Assembly (NCBI GenBank): GCA_000004695.1 | Contig: CM000151.3 | Coordinates: forward strand, 3,872,001 to 3,936,000 | Direction of reading: 5' to 3' | Origin: Dictyostelium discoideum | Lineage: Eukaryota | Length of the DNA: 64,000 nucleotides | In this document: positions 948 to 41,834 of the stretch, piece after piece | How positions within the stretch are numbered: the first letter of the stretch is position 1 | Layout of the letters: each line of letters starts with the position of its first letter | The notes under the pieces: model-generated | Told to the model about the DNA's origin: nothing | Database searches by the model: none | Seen by the model: only the letters and a program-made list of their open reading frames with translations | Program-made: the position numbers and the translations under genes

Positions 948-3900
948 CTAATTATCAATATTTGTAATACTATTTTTTGTTAATTTTATAAATATTTGTT
1001 CTATTGAAGTTTGACTAACAGAATAATCATCTAAAATGAATTTTAATGATTGTTCAATATTTGAAAAGATTGAAGATAATTTAATTGGATTATTTGGTGG
1101 ATTTGGTAATTCAAAACTTGCTGATAAAGCATGTTGATTGTCAATTAAACTTGCAGATGGGAATGATTGTAAGAATAACTCAACACCATTTTCAAGATAT
1201 TCTTTTTTAAATTTAACTTCAATTGAATAACCACTTCCAAATTTATCTTTAATATGTTGATTCGATCCTAATGCTTGTAATTTACCATCTTTCATAATTG
1301 TTAATTTATCACATACCGCTTGACATTCAGCTATTGAATGAGTTGTTAATATTATTGCTTTATTTTTTTTTAATTCCATTAAAACATTCCACATGAATCT
1401 TTTAACACATGCATCAACACCACATGATATTTCATCAAGTAATAGAATTGATGGTGAGCCAATGCAAGCTATTGATAATGATACTTTTCTTTTATTACCA
1501 CCAGAATAACCGGATGTGTTTGAATTTGAAATTGATTCTAAATCCATCATTTGAATGAATGCATTTACAGTATCTTTAATTTTAGACTCATCAACACCTT
1601 TAATTCTACAATATAATTCTAATTGTTCTCTTGCACTTAATAATCCAATTAATGCATCAAATTGGAAACAATAACCAATTGAAGTTAATGCATCATTTCT
1701 ATTTTTAATCAAATCATAACCATTTAATTTAATTTTACCACCAGTTGGACTAATTTCACCAGAGATCATTCCTAAGGTGGTTGATTTACCACAACCATTT
1801 AATCCAAGTAATCCAAATGTTTGACCAGTTGGTATTGCTAATGTACTATTATAAACTGCAATTTTTGATTTATAATTACCAACTGAATTAAATTTTTTAT
1901 ATAAATTATTAAAAATGATTGGATAAACATTACCACTACCACCATTAGTATTATTATCTAATAATTGTTTTACAATGATTCTTTCATTTGAAACATCAGA
2001 ATCTTCATTTGAATCTGGAATTGGTGAATTTGAAAATAATTTTGAAATTGTAAATTTACCTTTTATTTCACTTGAATAATCAATTAAAAGTATCCAAGTA
2101 ATCCAAACTATACAATGTAAAAATAAAATAGCATTTGGTAATAATCCAAAATGAAAACTCCAATAATCTATAAATGATTGATCAACTCTTGATACACCTG
2201 GGAATTTTGTAACAATTGCAAGTATTTTTGAAAAACAAAAGAATGGTGAAATTGCATAGAAACAATATTCAATTATATCAGTAAGGAATTGAAATGAAAT
2301 ACTATTCTCTTTAATTGCCCAAACTCTTAAAATAAATGAAATAACTGTAAATATTAAACCAACACCAAAATGAATTGCAAAGATTGCACCAACAGCTTTA
2401 CCATGTGATGAAAATTTAAATGACATTAAATATGATAATGGAATAATTGAAAATGTGAATAAAACAACACCACTAATATATAAATCGAAATGAGTTCTAA
2501 ATTTATCATCTACTGCAATGATTACAATTGTTAAAAATATAACTAGTATAAATGTTTGTAAATAATCCCAAATTAAATTTGATAACCAATAAATTGATTT
2601 TCTTAAACCTGAAATATATAATAATCTTTTAACTCTAGTTGAACGTTCATGTGATATGTTTCCTGCATGTGATGCTGCAATCAATGAAAATGAAGCCAAT
2701 GTTAAAATAATAAAGAAAACAATTGCAACGAAATTAACATCCAATGAAGCCACTTCTAATGGACTTTGAATATGTTCAAATGGTAATGAAGTTGTTTGGA
2801 TCCTTTTACCAGTTACTGATCTTAAAATTTCTGAATCAACAAAATTGATATAAATTGGTAAAGCATGTAAATAATCTTTATTGAAAAATACATTATAATG
2901 AAGGAATTTAACATTTTTAAAATAACGAAAATCGAAATATAATGCACCTGGAACACCGAAATAGTGATGAATTAAATAATCATGTAATTCATCATATGGT
3001 ACCAATGTAGTTCTATCTGAATGTCCAATTGAATTGTCAAATAATGATGTCATTGTTTCATTAACTTTATCAATTGAAACTGGTGTAACTGATTTACCAT
3101 AAACATTAAAATCAAGTATCAAAGGTTGAGTAACTGTATTATAAATATCAATAGTTCTCATATTTTTATATAATATTAAACCACCAGCTAATATTAAAAT
3201 TGGAATTAAAATTGAAAGAACAAATGATTTTATATCTTTTCTAGATGTTTTGACCCTTTTTATTAATAATCCTTTTAATTGTTGATAACTTTTAATACCT
3301 GAAGAATTTGTTTTTAATGCAGTATTTAAAACTGATTGATTAAAATTTGGATTTGTTTCAGAATTTGAAATTATCTTTAAAAATACTTCTTCCAATGTTG
3401 TAATTGAAATACCATAGTTTTCAATTGATAATTGTTTTTTTCTATCATCTAATTCTTTAAATAAATTTGAAAAATTTCCAATTGATTCATTTGGTAATCT
3501 AAAACATAATTCAGTACCGGCATCAGATAATAATGAACCTTTTGGTATATGATTAAATATAATATCACTAATGGTTTTTGTTAAATTTGAATTATTAATT
3601 GAATTATGTTCTTTTGAAATTGTTAATAAATAACCTACACCGAATCTATTCTTTAAGAATAAACTTGATCCATTGCATTTTAATTCACCATTTGCGATAA
3701 TTGAAATTGTATTTGATAGAATATCACATTCTTCTAAATAATGACTAACTAGAATAATGGTTTTATTTTCTCTATATTTTAAAATGAAATCCCAAATTAA
3801 TCTTCTATTTGATGCATCTAAACCTGATGTTGGTTCATCGATTAATATTATATCACTATTTGGTCCGATGAATGCAATTGCTAAACAAAGTTTACGTTTT

Positions 3901-5662
3901 TGACCACCTGATAGAGTTCCAGCTGGTGCATTTAATTTTTCACCTAATCCAACTTCTAATGCTATTTTTGTAGCTTCAACTTTTCTTTGATTTGAATTTG
4001 TAAAACCTTTTAATGCTGCATAAAATTCTAAATGTTCCATTACAGTTAACTGTTCCCAAATTATATCAGATTGTGGACAAACTCCTAAATGTTTTCTAAT
4101 TTCATCTATATTATTCCTAATATCAAATCCATTAATTAAAGCATCACCAGATGTTGGCTCAATCATACCAGTTAACATACTAAGTGTTGTTGATTTTCCA
4201 CTACCATTTGGACCTAGAAATGAATGAATTCGATTTTTATACATATCAATTGATAAATCATTAACTGCAATTCTATTACCATCACCAGTTTTAAATTCTT
4301 TTCTTAAATTTCTAATTGAAATTGTTGGTCTTTCTAATTGATGTTCAATTTTTTCAAAATTCTTTTCATTATATGAACTATTTCTATTACATGAAGTTGC
4401 CTCCACGTCAAACACTCCATTATTATTAATATTTGATTTTTTATTTTTTCTCCAATAATTCTTTGTTAAAAAGAAATACCATTTCTTTGGAATACCATAT
4501 TCACCAGTTATAACATTATCTAAATACCATAAAATGAGAATATATAAAAAGATATCAAAAACTAACATTCCAATAATTTCATATTCATTTACCATATTAA
4601 CATTTATATCAACTTCTTTGAAAACTATTAAATCTTTATAACACCAAACATAATTTGCAACTGAAATTGCAATTGGTGAAAATAAACATGATAATAATTT
4701 TAAAGTTGGTGATATATTAAAACGACCAATTATAATTCCAATACCAGATAATAATAATACTATTAAAAATGCCATTAATCCAGCATATTTTGATTTTGTA
4801 AAAAATTTACATAGAATAAATGCAATTAATAATAATGTTATCGAGTATGGTATTAATATTAATATTAAAGTTATCCATTTTACATGATGAACTAATTGTG
4901 ATGCTGATAGTATAATTGAAACTAATAAAGTTGATGATAATAATGTAATCAATGATATAATAGAATTTGAAATATAATATGCAAAACTATTCAAACCCAT
5001 GGTTTTCATACCTTCTAATATTTTAGTTTCTTTTTCAATTACAATATTTGTTATCAATGTAAACAATGTTGCAAATAATGATGCAGTAATAAACACACCA
5101 CCCGTATTTAAAAGTATTAATTTCCTTCCGTCGGTCCATTTCTCCCAAAATGAAATATACGGATTTGGAAATCTTTGGCCAGTTGCGAATATTGGTATTG
5201 CAATTTGATTGGTTAATAAAATCGCTTGATCAACTCCAGTTTGAATTTGTGTGAAATAATGTCTTAAATAAATTTGTGAATCTTCTCTATCTTGAAATTG
5301 CTGTGTATTGTCATGTGTAAAATCCGAATCAACTCGTATACTATATTTAATTGTATTTCCATTGAAACTATCATCTGGAAACCATACACCACCCATTACA
5401 CCTCTATAATTAAATGGATCATGGAAATATTCATCCATTGATTCAATATCTTTAAATTCGACAAAACATCTATTAATATAATCATTACTAAATTCTGGAT
5501 GTTGAATTGAAACTTGTAATTTTAAATTATCAAGTATATTTCTTTGATCACTATTTAATCCACCATTTGATCCAATTAATAATTGTTTTGTATGTGCAAT
5601 ATCAAAAGCAAATCCACTTGCTGGTCTTTCTTTAAAATCTCTTGTAATAATCATTGATAAAT
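948..5662 (-). CDS. ABC transporter A-family (ABCA full transporter), exon 2 of 2
   Basis: 1568-aa ORF with two NBDs (Walker A GPNGSGKST / GLNGCGKST, signatures LSGGQKRK / YSGGNKRK) and two multi-TM blocks; acceptor tatAG at 5663-5664. Confidence 0.85.
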
Positions 5663-6721: not shown

Positions 6722-6738
6722 ATGTTAATTAAAGAATA
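6722..6738 (+). CDS. Phosphatidylinositol transfer protein (PITP) exon 1 (MLIKEY-)
   Basis: ATG TTA ATT AAA GAA TA|GTATGT; joined to exon 2 gives MLIKEYRMVLPLTVEEYQ, cf. metazoan PITP MVLLKEYRVILPVSVDEYQ. Confidence 0.6.
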
Positions 6739-6861
6739 GTATGTACCCCTCTCTTATTTATAATTTTATTTTTAAAAATAAAAATTATATGTTATTAATA
6801 TTAATATTAATATTAAAATTTTATTTTATTTTATTTTTTTTTAAAAAAAAATAAATTTTAG

Positions 6862-7130
6862 TAGGATGGTTTTACCTTTAACGGTTGAAGAATATCAAAT
6901 AGCACAATTATATATGGTAGCAAAAAAAAGTAAAGAATCAACAAAAGGTGGTGAAGGTATTGAAATTATAAAGAATGAACCTTTTGATAATGAAAAAGGT
7001 AAAGGTCAATATACTGAAAAAATTATTTATTTAGCAAACTCATTACCAAGATTTGCAGCTGCAATTTTACCATCAAGTGCTTTAAAAATTGAAGAAAAAG
7101 CTTGGAATGCTTATCCATATTGTAAAACTG
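6862..7130 (+). CDS. PITP exon 2
   Basis: acceptor ttttAG at 6860-61; ORF 6866..7144 encodes ...AQLYMVAKKSKESTKGGEGIEI..KGQYTEKI..AWNAYPYCKT (PITP signature); donor G|GTATGT at 7131. Confidence 0.8.
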
Positions 7131-7158
7131 GTATGTTTAAATAATTATAATAAAATAA

Positions 7159-7192
<34 letters not shown>

Positions 7193-7240
7193 CGCTAACT
7201 TTTTTTTTTTTTAATTTTTTTAATAAATAATTTTTATTAG

Positions 7241-7248
7241 AATACAGC
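7241..7248 (+). CDS. PITP putative 8-nt micro-exon (AATACAGC); needed to restore frame between exons 2 and 4
   Basis: ttattAG|AATACAGC|GTTTGT; gives CKT-EYS-CPFFGEKLVLSIE, which recovers the conserved NEY of PITP; inferred from phase arithmetic only. Confidence 0.3.
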
Positions 7249-7362
7249 GTTTGTATCTTTTTTTTAAAAAAAAAATAATAAAAGGTAGGTTAAAAATAAT
7301 ATATTAATTTTTAAAAAAATAAAAAATAAAAAAAATAAATAAAAAAAACGATTTAATTATAG

Positions 7363-7593
7363 TGCCCATTCTTTGGAGAGAAATTAGTATTATCAATTGA
7401 ATCAATGCATTTACCAGGTAGAGGTGAAGTTGAAAATGCTTTGAAATGTGATGCAGAAACATTAAAACAAAGACATGTTGACTTTATTGACATTGCAAAT
7501 GATCAACCAAAGGAATACATTAAAGAGGAAGATCCAAAAATATTTAAATCAGTAAAAACAGAAAGAGGTCCATTAGATGATCCAAAATGGAGA
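7363..7593 (+). CDS. PITP exon 4 (CPFFGEKLVLSIESMHLPGRGEVEN...DDPKWR)
   Basis: acceptor attatAG at 7361-62; matches PITP FLIKIETWHKPDLGTQEN...EEDPAKFKS..TGRGPL; donor AGA|GTACAT at 7594. Confidence 0.75.
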
Positions 7594-7682
7594 GTACATT
7601 ATCTTTTAAGTTTTATTTTTTTTTAGAAATTAAATTGTATTAACCTAATAATTACCAAAAAAAAAAAAAAAAAAAAAAACAG

Positions 7683-7904
7683 GACAAAGTTGAACCAGTA
7701 ATGACATGCTATAAATTAGTTCATGCAGAATTTAAATATTGGGGTTTCCAAACTAAAGTTGAAAATGTTATCCAAGATACAGGTGTAAGAGATGTACTAT
7801 TAAAAGCACACAGAGCTTTATTTTGTTGGATTGATGAATGGTTTGGTTTAACAATTGAAGATATTAGAAAAATTGAAGAAGAAACTAAAGCAGAATTAGC
7901 AAAG
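7683..7904 (+). CDS. PITP exon 5 (DKVEPVMTCYKLVHAEFKYWGFQTKVENVIQ...ETKAELAK)
   Basis: acceptor aaacAG at 7681-82; matches PITP [23 protein letters not shown]...LFCWLD.W..LT..DIR..EEETK; donor AAG|GTAATT at 7905. Confidence 0.8.
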
Positions 7905-7928
7905 GTAATTTTTATTTTATTATTATTT

Positions 7929-7960
<32 letters not shown>

Positions 7961-8004
7961 GTTTTATTTCTAATTAATTTATTTATTTATTTATTTATAT
8001 ACAG

Positions 8005-8037
8005 AAATTAGAAGAAAATAAAGCTGCAAATAAATAA
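8005..8037 (+). CDS. PITP terminal exon (KLEENKAANK*)
   Basis: acceptor atacAG at 8003-04; stop TAA at 8035-8037. Confidence 0.55.
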   Translation, partial: KLEENKAANK

Positions 8038-8100: not shown

Positions 8101-8255
8101 TTTTATTTTATTTTTCCCAAAACAAATCAAAATAAATCAAATCAAATCAAATCAAATCAAATCAAATCAAAACCAATCAAAACAAAACAAAACAAAACAA
8201 AATAAATCAAATCAAAACAAAACAAAACAAAACAAAACAAAATTAATAAAGGTGT
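8101..8255. repeat. (AAATC)n / (AAAAC)n pentanucleotide microsatellite in the 3' intergenic region between PITP and the cyclophilin gene
   Basis: aaatcaaatcaaatcaaatcaaatcaaatcaaaaccaatcaaaacaaaacaaaacaaaac... Confidence 0.9.
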
Positions 8256-8323
8256 TATATGTAATTAAATTAAGTTAGATTCAATCTGCTACTTTATTTA
8301 TTTTTTTTTTTCCCCTTTCATCA

Positions 8324-8683
8324 TTACCATTTCTCAGAAATGATTTTAACGGAATTTAAATAAGAAAGTAATGGGAAATTTTGTTGTAAATAAGAATTTC
8401 CTTCTGAATATATTAAAGATTGATCAGGTTCTTCACCATAACCACCATAAAAGTTTAAAGTATTATTGAATCCTGAAATCACTTTACCAAATGGACTGAA
8501 ACCTGCAGAATCAAGGAAAGAATTATCTGCATAATTTATAAATAATTGAGTAGTTCTACAACATGCTTGATTATTTTCTTCTTCTGCTGCAAATGTAATT
8601 GTACCTGCTGTATTTGAAATAACTACTGGATCATTTGGTATTGTAATATTCCATTTATCATTTAATGATGAATCTGGTGAAAT
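8324..8683 (-). CDS. Cyclophilin-like protein exon 2 (ISPDSSLNDKWNITIPNDPVVISNTAGTITFAAEEENNQACCRTTQLFINYADNSFLDSAGFSPFGKV...)
   Basis: acceptor taaAG at 8685-84; GTITFA....N..Q.FI.......LD....FGKV matches cyclophilin GTLSMAN.G.NTNGSQFFI.T....WLDGKHVVFGKV; stop TAA at 8326-8324. Confidence 0.6.
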   Translation of the reverse strand: MSPDSSLNDKWNITIPNDPVVISNTAGTITFAAEEENNQACCRTTQLFINYADNSFLDSAGFSPFGKVISGFNNTLNFYGGYGEEPDQSLIYSEGNSYLQQNFPLLSYLNSVKIISEKW

Positions 8684-8798
8684 CTTTATTTTATTTATTT
8701 ATAGTTTATACACATTTTTAGCTTTTACTCCTCTTTTTCATTATTTATTATTTTTTATTTTTTTATTTATAATTTATTAATTATATTATTATACATAC

Positions 8799-9047
8799 AC
8801 CAAATTGAGCAACAAATAATGGAGTTTGAATAACTCTAAAGAATGCATTATCAGTATAGAAACCATCTTGAACTAATGCATAAAATCTATCACTACCATA
8901 TGGTGAATAGGATCTATTTACAAAAATCTCAACATCACCTTTACTTGTTGAAAATACAACATTATATGTTTGTGGTGATTGTTGACTTATTACTATTCCA
9001 ATAAATGATAAAATAATAAATAATGATGTAATATTAAATTTATTCAT
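8799..9047 (-). CDS. Secreted cyclophilin-type peptidyl-prolyl isomerase-like protein, exon 1 (signal peptide + N-terminal half of the domain)
   Basis: MNKFNITSLFIILSFIGIVIS signal peptide; FYALVQDGFYTDNAFFRVI / VAQFG resemble cyclophilin F..L..G.Y.G..FHRII / MCQGG; donor GGT|GTATGT at 8798. Confidence 0.6.
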
Positions 9048-9368
9048 TTTGTTTTTTTTTTTTTTTTTTTTGTTTTTTTGGTTGGAAAAATGAAAATTAA
9101 AAATTAAAAATTAAAAAAAAGGAAAATAGCAGAAATAAAAAAATAATTAAAAAAAAAAAAAAAAAATTGGAATAGAATTTCTGTGGATTGTTATGAAAAT
9201 AAAAATAAAAATAAAAAAAGATTTGTGTTGGTGTGGTAAAATTAAAAATTGAAACATCAGGATATCTTTTTTTTTTTTTATTATTTTTAAAATAATTTTA
9301 TTTAATTTGTTTTAATTTGTTTTTTTTAATTTTTTTTTTTAATTTATTTTTAATTTATTTTTAATTTA

Positions 9369-12593
<3,225 letters not shown>

Positions 12594-39401: not shown

Positions 39402-40832
39402 TTATGTTGATGGTGTTAGTGGTTTAACTGAAAATAAATTTGGAATTCCACCAATAAATCCGCTCTTTTCTGATGGTTGTTGGTTTGTTGAGGTTGTTGT
39501 CGATCTAGTGGAAATTCCACTAAGGAATCCACTTGGTTTTGGTGTTTCATTAGCATTTGTTGTAGATATTGCTGGTGATGTTGTAGAAGGTTTTTTAGTT
39601 ACTGTAGGTGGTAAAGTTGGTTTTATATTTGAAAATTCACCGATGTATCCACTTTTTTCAGTGGTTTGCGTAATACCTCCAATCAATCCACCAAATGGAG
39701 CATTTCCAGTTGTTGAGGTTGATTGGGTATTTGAGGTTGGTATAAAACCTATTAAACCTGGCAATAGATTGGATGGCGGAGGAGTAGAATGCGTTTGAGT
39801 TGGGGTTGGTGTTTGAGTTTGAGTTTGAGTTGGTGTTTGAGTTTGAGTTGGTGTTGGTGTTTGAGTTTGAGTTGGAGTTTGTGTTTGAGTTTGTATTGGT
39901 TTTGGAGTTTGAGTTTGTGTTGGAGTTTGTGTTTGGGTTTGAGTTGGTGTTGGTGTTTTAGTTTGAGTTGGTTTTGGAGTTTGGGTTTGTGTTGGAGTTT
40001 GTGTTTGAGTTTGAGTTGGTGTTGATGTTTGAGTTTGAGTTGGTGTTTGTGTTTGAGTTTGTGTTTGTGTTTGTGTTTGTGTTGGTGTTTGTGTTGGTGT
40101 TTGTGTTTGAGTTTGTGTTTGTGTTGGTTTTGGAGTTTGTGTTTGTGTTGGAGTTTGTGTTTGTGTTGAATTTTGTGTTTGTGTTTGTGTTTGTGTTTGT
40201 GTTTGTGTTTGTGTTGGTGTTGGTGTTGGTGTGTGGGTTTGTGTTGGTGTTGGAGTTGGAGTTTGTGTTGGAGTTGGAGTTTGTGTTGGAGTCGGAGTTT
40301 GGGTTGGTGTTGGTGTTGGAGTTTGAGTTGTTGGTGTTTGTGTTGGTGTTTGCGTTGGAGTTTGTGTTGGTGTTGGTGTTTGAGTTGATGTTTGTGTTGG
40401 TGTCGAGGTTGGTGTATTGATTCCACCTAAAAAGCCTCCAAAGAAACCAGATGCTTTTGTTGGTGTTGGTGTTGGTGTTGTTGATATTGATGTTGGTGTT
40501 GTTGATATTGATGTTGGTGTTGAGGATGGTGCATTGATACCACCAAAAATGCCTCATAAGAAACCAGATGCTTTTGTTGGTGTTGGTGTTGGTGTTTGAG
40601 TTTGAGTTGGTGTTGGTGTTAGTGTTGGTGTTATTGTTGGGGTTTGAGTTGGGGTTGGTGTTAGTGTTGGTGTTGGTGTTAGGGTTTGAGTTTGTGTTGG
40701 TGTTGGTGCTATTGTTATTGTTGGGGTTTGAGTTTGTCTTTGAGTTTGTGTAGGTGTTGGTGTTTGAGTTGGTGTTGGTGTTGGTGTTTGTGTTTGGGTT
40801 GGTGTTGGTGTATTGTAACCTCCAAAATAGCC
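39402..40832 (-). repeat. 1.4-kb coding-type hexanucleotide (AACACC/AACTCA) Pro/Thr/Gln repeat array, open in the same frame as upstream gene D, with interspersed K(A/E)SGF(L/F)GG(Y/I/F)FGG(Y/I)N(T/A)P units; lies 3' of the first in-frame TGA of gene D
   Basis: the PT reading frame is continuous from 41834 to 39402 except for two TGA codons (40835-33 and about 40550), each replacing the GGA Gly codon of the unit GFL-G-G; the track's overlapping ORFs on both strands here are alternative frames of the repeat. Confidence 0.7.
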
Positions 40833-41834
40833 TCATAAGAAACCAGATGCTTTAGTTGGAGTGGGTGTTGGTGTTTGTGATTGGGTGGCTGTAGTTGTAG
40901 TTGTAGGTGTTGGTGTTGGTGTAGGTGTATTGTAGCCACCGAAATAGCCTCCTAAAAAACCAGATTCTTTAGTTGGAGTGGGTGTTGGTGTTTGTGATTG
41001 AGTGGGTGTAGTTGTAGGTGTTGGTGTAGGTAGTGGTTGGGTTGGTGAAGGTGTTTGAATAGGTTGTGTTGTACCAGTTGTTGAACCACCAAATAAACCA
41101 CCCAAGAAACTAGATACTGGTTTTTGAGTTGGATTTGGGGTTGGAGTTGAGGTTGGGGTTGGAGTTGATGAAAGTGTTTGTGCGGGTGTTGGTGTTGATC
41201 CACCACCACCTATAAATCCACCTAAAAAACCACTTGATGGTTTCGATGTTGGAGTTGGAGTTAAAGATGGTGTTACACCACCATTTGTACTTCCACCACT
41301 TATGAAACCACCAATGAAACCAGTACCACCACCATTTGGTTGGGTAGGTACAGGGGTTTGAGTTTTAAAACCACCACTACCTCCACCTAATAAACCACCT
41401 AACAAACCTGAAGATCCGCCACCTAATAAAGCACCACCAATTAAATGTGGGATATTATCAACTCCAATTAAACCAGAAGTTGATGTAACACGTGGACATA
41501 ATAATTTTGCTTCAATGATTGCACCAAATAAACCACTAAATAAATTTGATAGACCAAATATTGATTTTTGTACTCTTTCATCCATATTATCTTGATCCAT
41601 AATAATTATACCTTTATTAACTGGAATCCCATCTTTATTAAACAATTCAGGATAACAAAAGTTTCTATATTTTGAACATAATGAAGTAATCTTTACATCA
41701 ATATTATCAACTAAATAGTTTAAATCATAATTTTGATCTGTTAAATAATTTTTAATTCTTGATATAAAATATTTTTGTTTTTCATCTTCATTTAATTTAT
41801 TAAATAATTTTAAAGATACATCATTTTTATCATT
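40833..41834 (-). CDS. Secreted Cys-pair/GxLGG-repeat protein D, exon 2 (NDKNDVSLKLFNKL...CSKYRNFCYPELF...GLIGV..LIGGALLGGGSSGLLGGLLGGG..., then PT-rich linker with GFLGG units), to the first TGA
   Basis: acceptor tttAG at 41836-35; ORF 40833..41645 extended 5'; terminates at TGA 40835-40833. Confidence 0.65.
   Translation of the reverse strand, partial: NDKNDVSLKLFNKLNEDEKQKYFISRIKNYLTDQNYDLNYLVDNIDVKITSLCSKYRNFCYPELFNKDGIPVNKGIIIMDQDNMDERVQKSIFGLSNLFSGLFGAIIEAKLLCPRVTSTSGLIGVDNIPHLIGGALLGGGSSGLLGGLLGGGSGGFKTQTPVPTQPNGGGTGFIGGFISGGSTNGGVTPSLTPTPTSKPSSGFLGGFIGGGGSTPTPAQTLSSTPTPTSTPTPNPTQKPVSSFLGGLFGGSTTGTTQPIQTPSPTQPLPTPTPTTTPTQSQTPTPTPTKESGFLGGYFGGYNTPTPTPTPTTTTTATQSQTPTPTPTKASGFL

Follow-up and report, generated by a model that had tools for sequence, protein, structure and literature searches.

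The DNA analyzed here, a stretch of 64,000 nucleotides from Dictyostelium discoideum that we call the window, has a G+C content of about 17-30%, long A/T runs and short AT-rich GT-AG introns. The gene at 6722-8037 on the plus strand is pitB / PITP2 of D. discoideum (DDB_G0274579, XP_643916.1, UniProt Q9NCL7), which encodes phosphatidylinositol transfer protein 2, a class-I PITP with an IP_trans domain. Its exon chain was determined with a spliced search that finds every GT-AG-bounded chain of exons translating exactly to a given protein, with introns of 40-900 nt. For the reference protein, this exhaustive search of the window returned one solution only, and that solution includes an exon of just 8 nt at 7241-7248. 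The 259 aa encoded by the joined segments 6722-6738, 6862-7130, 7241-7248, 7363-7593, 7683-7904 and 8005-8037 are identical at every residue to EAL70182.1 / XP_643916.1 / Q9NCL7 (exact-sequence look-up; D. discoideum AX4). Given the uniqueness of this chain, we infer that the exon coordinates in the window are those of the reference record. The elements of the gene that are discussed below are as follows.

6722-6738, plus strand: pitB exon 1, 17 nt, ATG TTA ATT AAA GAA TA (M L I K E Y-), donor gtatgtac, phase 2
6862-7130, plus strand: pitB exon 2, 269 nt, ending ...TGT AAA ACT G in phase 1, with C93, K94, T95 and the first base of codon 96
7131-7240, plus strand: pitB intron 2, 110 nt, gtatgttt...tttattag, phase 1, with an (ATA)n tract and CTAAC
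7241-7248, plus strand: pitB micro-exon, 8 nt, AATACAGC, which completes codon 96 (G+AA = E) and encodes Y97 and S98
7249-7362, plus strand: pitB intron 3, 114 nt, gtttgtat...aattatag, phase 0
7363-7593, plus strand: pitB exon 4, 231 nt, starting TGC CCA TTC TTT GGA (C P F F G)
7683-7904, plus strand: pitB exon 5, 222 nt
8005-8037, plus strand: pitB exon 6, 33 nt including the TAA stop (...K A A N K, stop)

Around the orthologous genes of a second D. discoideum isolate (locus L006), D. firmibasis (L008) and D. citrinum (L009), an ABCA-type ABC transporter is annotated upstream, and a cyclophilin (Pro_isomerase) and an Aquarius-like helicase are annotated downstream on the minus strand. At the corresponding places of the window (948-5654 and 9369-12560), long open reading frames run on the minus strand. 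Judging from this synteny, the minus-strand neighbors of pitB at 948-5654, about 8300-9100 and 9369-12560 should be the ABC transporter, the cyclophilin and the helicase, respectively. No tRNAs were found in the window. Several repeats were noted, including an (ATA)n microsatellite within intron 2 (7160-7183) whose length varies between isolates, and (AAATC)n/(AAAAC)n arrays at 8128-8240, just 3' of the pitB stop codon. Farther away, a long imperfect hexanucleotide array of GTTTGT / TGTTGG units with higher-order 117-nt repeats occupies 39793-41031, shows strong positive GC skew and the highest G+C of the window, and overlaps the minus-strand open reading frames 39958-40836 and 40833-41645; this array presumably encodes a Thr/Pro/Asn-rich repeat protein.

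The predicted protein matches the Pfam IP_trans profile (PF02121) with 375.6 bits against a cut-off of 21.3, over profile positions 1-245 of 246. HMMER comparisons with the solved structures of PITP alpha (1UW5 / 1T27 / 1KCM) and PITP beta (2A1L) gave E-values of 4e-74 to 9e-72 over residues 2-250, and the alignment is gap-free through the micro-exon region only when the three residues contributed there are present. The cloning of cDNA for the D. discoideum PITPs was published by Swigart, Insall, Wilkins and Cockcroft (2000, Biochem J 347:837), a paper listed as reference 15 in PMC8266687. The closest protein matches to the gene in the window are Dictyostelium proteins, and the whole protein is 72-82% identical across Dictyostelia. 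The cloning study is said to have dealt with the phosphatidylinositol and phosphatidylcholine transfer activity of the D. discoideum PITPs.

The 8-nt exon stands in the context tttattag/AATACAGC/gtttgtat, and the final G of exon 2 joined to AATACAGC reads E-Y-S. A first-pass annotation, made from the raw sequence, had exon 2 end in phase 1 at 7130 before the donor GTATGT and had the next conserved exon begin in phase 0 at 7363, and the sequence bears out both statements: the TAG at 7360-7362, directly 5' of the TGC at 7363, is an acceptor AG and an in-frame stop at once. Its proposal of an E-Y-S-encoding exon with both splice signals at 7241-7248 was likewise correct, by sequence and by the exact match to the reference protein, and the comparison that it suggested with the annotated PITP of the reference species gave a translation identical to XP_643916.1. 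It overstated the case in holding that the phases can be reconciled only by an exon of length 3n+2, as there are 17 frame-compatible single-intron joins (rejected below on conservation and profile score). Nor does its expectation that gene predictors easily miss such an exon apply here, since both the reference model and 10/10 annotated members of the protein cluster described below include it. Indeed, because the sole exon chain that yields the reference protein contains 7241-7248, the exon is already part of the reference gene model and of UniProt, and finding it in the raw sequence is a rediscovery and not a new result.

Several properties of this segment are those of a coding micro-exon. 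It is an internal exon of 8 nt that is bounded by AG and GT and whose neighboring introns measure 110 and 114 nt; the reading frame and the conserved CKTEYSCPFFG depend on its inclusion; and the exon and its splice signals are conserved in related genomes (five group-4 loci). When the 8 nt are left out, the frame shifts and a stop follows 15 codons later (CKTVPILWREISIIN, then the stop). On the other hand, the splice signals alone are statistically weak and not compelling, and chance could produce them. The 232-nt interval between exons 2 and 4 contains 5 AG and 6 GT dinucleotides, which delimit two phase-compatible, stop-free exons, 7241-7248 (EYS) and 7248-7252 (AF), and at least one such AG..GT candidate arose in 33% of 2000 dinucleotide-preserving shuffles of the interval. 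The case for the micro-exon rests on comparison and on the database match, not on the match to splice motifs. Within the window, the micro-exon donor GTTTGT is unlike the GTATGT, GTACAT and GTAATT donors of the other pitB introns. A further donor that we considered and rejected, AAAGGTAGGT at 7281-7290, would give a phase-compatible 44-nt exon (7241-7284) that has an in-frame TAA in an A-run and is thus non-coding.

Orthologous loci were run through the same spliced search as the window, and the following sequences were recovered for the micro-exon, at CDS nt 287-294 in each case.

Window, D. discoideum (matches the AX4 reference protein): AATACAGC
L006, second D. discoideum isolate: AATATAGT
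L008, D. firmibasis: AATACAGT
L009, D. citrinum: AATATAGT
L001, D. purpureum: TTTATAGT

The differences between these loci are synonymous third-position changes (TAC/TAT, AGC/AGT) or a replacement of E by V. The TAG acceptor before the micro-exon and the GTTTGTAT donor after it do not vary among the five group-4 Dictyostelium loci, while the flanking introns diverge in length (62-117 nt and 66-151 nt) and align poorly. As read from these alignments, the pattern is that of a coding island under selection. At the protein level, the motif CKT[EVI][YF]SCPFFG occurs in every dictyostelid orthologue. A protein cluster at 90% identity comprises ten annotated members (several D. discoideum isolates, D. 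citrinum, D. firmibasis and D. dimigraforme), all of which have the 8-nt exon, and its representative reads CKTEYSCPFFG. The valid homology argument for this exon is the one from conserved length together with the dictyostelid motif.

We weighed other gene models against this evidence. If there were no micro-exon, one intron could run from 7131 to an acceptor in the presumed exon 4 (7378 or 7387), and the protein would read CKT-E-KLVLS... or CKT-VLS... The corresponding joins, 7130^7379 and 7130^7388, do keep the frame open and are two of the 17 mentioned above; however, all 17 remove at least 8 residues, invariant ones included, and these two delete 8-11 residues that include SCPFFG[ED][KR], which is invariant in the dictyostelid orthologues. 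Their acceptors (ttctttggag/ and gagaaattag/) lie within coding-like sequence that is conserved between species, and the resulting proteins break the gap-free alignment to the solved PITPs and differ from the reference protein. Their Pfam scores are also lower, by 24-30 bits. Of the four models scored against IP_trans, the one with the 8-nt exon (EYS) is highest with 375.6 bits, followed by a 5-nt exon (AF) with 366.3 bits, the single intron to 7379 with 351.7 bits and the single intron to 7388 with 345.3 bits. A single intron across the interval is therefore very improbable. The 5-nt exon (7248-7252, acag/CGTTT/gtatct) overlaps the micro-exon and would supply A-F instead of E-Y-S. Although it is the sole other phase-compatible, stop-free AG..GT candidate in the interval, it leads to CKTAFCPFFG, which is one residue short, does not match the reference protein, scores 9.3 bits lower and contradicts the [EVI][YF]S of all orthologues, including those of species in which these codons are unsplit by an intron. 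We regard it as hardly credible.

It could also be argued that the 8 nt are not a spliced exon but a construct of annotation, introduced to save a gene that is frame-shifted and decaying (a pseudogene or an error in sequencing), given that no transcript was directly seen. The evidence for the exon in mature mRNA is indirect and consists of the UniProt entry and of the published cDNA cloning. The protein collection held no RNA-derived copy of the pitB protein (the cluster members are all from genome annotation or UniProt), the spliced junction in degenerate form (TGTAAAACTGWWTAYAGYTGYCCATTYTTTGG) had 0 matches in the metagenome and metatranscriptome contigs scanned, and a contig look-up with the exact AX4 protein returned no entry. 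Against decay, five independent assemblies from four to five species carry this 8-nt exon together with intact signals on both sides, the substitutions inside it are synonymous or conservative, and the protein keeps its end-to-end IP_trans match and its 72-82% identity across Dictyostelia. In addition, Q9NCL7 comes from an accession series older than the genome project, consistent with a sequence derived from cDNA. We regard decay or error as the source of the exon as highly improbable. If the exon is spliced in, GAATACAGC is expected in pitB cDNA. Overall, we consider it almost certain from sequence comparison that D. discoideum pitB has, at 7241-7248, an internal coding exon of 8 nt that is constitutive, represented in the reference annotation and likely born by intron gain.

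The origin of the micro-exon can be approached through species in which its codons are not set apart. P. violaceum, T. lacteum, A. subglobosum and C. fasciculata carry these 8 bases joined without a break to the coding sequence before them; for example, T. lacteum has AAAACTG AATACAGT followed directly by gtatgt, and C. fasciculata has AAAACCG AATATAGT followed directly by gtatga. The phase-0 intron after the 8 bases, at CDS nt 294, is common to all dictyostelid pitB orthologues (in T. lacteum, whose CDS contains an additional codon, it lies at CDS nt 297). The phase-1 intron before them (CDS nt 286) is restricted to D. purpureum and the D. discoideum complex, and the four outgroup species lack it. 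In the accepted dictyostelid tree, groups 1 and 2 are separated from groups 3 and 4, and P. violaceum is placed next to group 4. Since this tree requires a single gain on the group-4 stem as opposed to three independent precise losses, intron gain is the preferred origin. Most likely, then, the micro-exon is the 8-nt tail of an ordinary exon that was severed by a new intron inserted 8 nt upstream of the older phase-0 intron. We lean toward a more specific scenario in which the common ancestor of D. discoideum and D. purpureum gained the phase-1 intron between ACTG and AATAYAGT, in which this intron was then kept with a fixed weak GTTTGTAT donor, and in which CTAAC and AAAGGTAGGTT, described below, may aid splicing.

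This comparative reconstruction is the only new element of the analysis. In the literature searched we found no prior description of such an intron-gain origin; a search for Dictyostelium micro-exons gave no relevant match, only a TopHat command-line option in an lncRNA paper, and a search for DdPITP2 / PITP1 in Dictyostelium gave no match. With its uninterrupted state preserved in four outgroup species, pitB offers a clean example of a micro-exon that most likely arose from lineage-specific intron gain beside an older intron.

How so short an exon might be spliced can be outlined from its position. The micro-exon contributes the last two bases of codon E96 as well as Y97 and S98, right after the conserved C-K-T. 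Short introns are expected to be recognized by intron definition rather than by exon definition, and each of the two AT-rich introns here (110 and 114 nt) is presumably recognized in this way. Because 8 nt are too short to hold the 3' and 5' splice-site complexes together comfortably, the two introns are probably removed sequentially, and the first removal would fuse the 8 nt to the end or the start of an exon of normal size. Skipping of the micro-exon would yield a truncated protein of about 110 residues without most of the lipid-binding domain, so its inclusion is expected to be constitutive.

Two intronic motifs stand out near the micro-exon. A branch-site-like CTAAC lies at 7195-7199, 42 nt 5' of the micro-exon acceptor, and is kept in the D. 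discoideum-complex loci; apart from it, intron 2 is A/T low-complexity sequence. The second, a 5' splice-site-like AAAGGTAGGTT at 7281-7291, lies 33 nt 3' of the GTTTGT donor; the four D. discoideum-complex loci share it, whereas D. purpureum lacks it. This second motif may act as an enhancer that binds U1 or as a decoy, or it may be merely an alignable island. Both motifs may take part in splicing of the micro-exon.

A different small exon of the same gene is the one that annotation has lost. All six dictyostelid orthologues conserve the 17-nt exon 1 (MLIKEY) and the phase-2 intron that follows it, and the exon is present in the DNA of the window (6722-6738), of the second D. discoideum isolate (L006, 2863-2879) and of D. 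citrinum (L009, 1332-1348). Nevertheless, 7/10 annotated cluster members (252-253 aa) start at Met8, the exon having been missed by automated pipelines. Recent automated annotations of several Dictyostelium isolates thus keep the 8-nt exon, lose the 17-nt exon and yield a protein 7 residues short. The main value of the present case is accordingly one of quality control: reasoning about phase on raw sequence recovered a real 8-nt exon that the reference annotation already handles.

Among known PITPs, the mammalian class-I proteins belong to the same fold family as the pitB product, which carries a full-length IP_trans domain. According to the HMMER alignment, E-Y-S of pitB faces V-I-T of PITP alpha or I-V-T of PITP beta, and it is C-P-F of pitB that faces N-E-Y; the first-pass suggestion that E-Y-S recreates the metazoan N-E-Y is therefore incorrect. 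The D. discoideum paralogue pitA / PITP1 (P0091, locus L007) is a member of the same family, is 53% identical and has CKTVLKSPFLGEK at the same place. However, pitA lacks introns at CDS 286 and 294 and has a single intron at CDS nt 369, and hence it has no micro-exon. The intron at CDS nt 369, which is in phase 0 and follows E-N, is common to pitA and to pitB of A. subglobosum and C. fasciculata (L007, L005 and L003), whereas the pitB genes of D. discoideum, D. purpureum, P. violaceum and T. lacteum lack it. This intron is probably old and was lost in the branch leading to the latter four species.

Coding micro-exons are known from animals, plants and protists, and like that of pitB they are very short, have canonical AG/GT boundaries, preserve the reading frame only if they are included and are conserved among relatives. 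The pitB micro-exon differs from them in that it shows no sign of regulated or tissue-specific inclusion and in that its flanking introns are very short.
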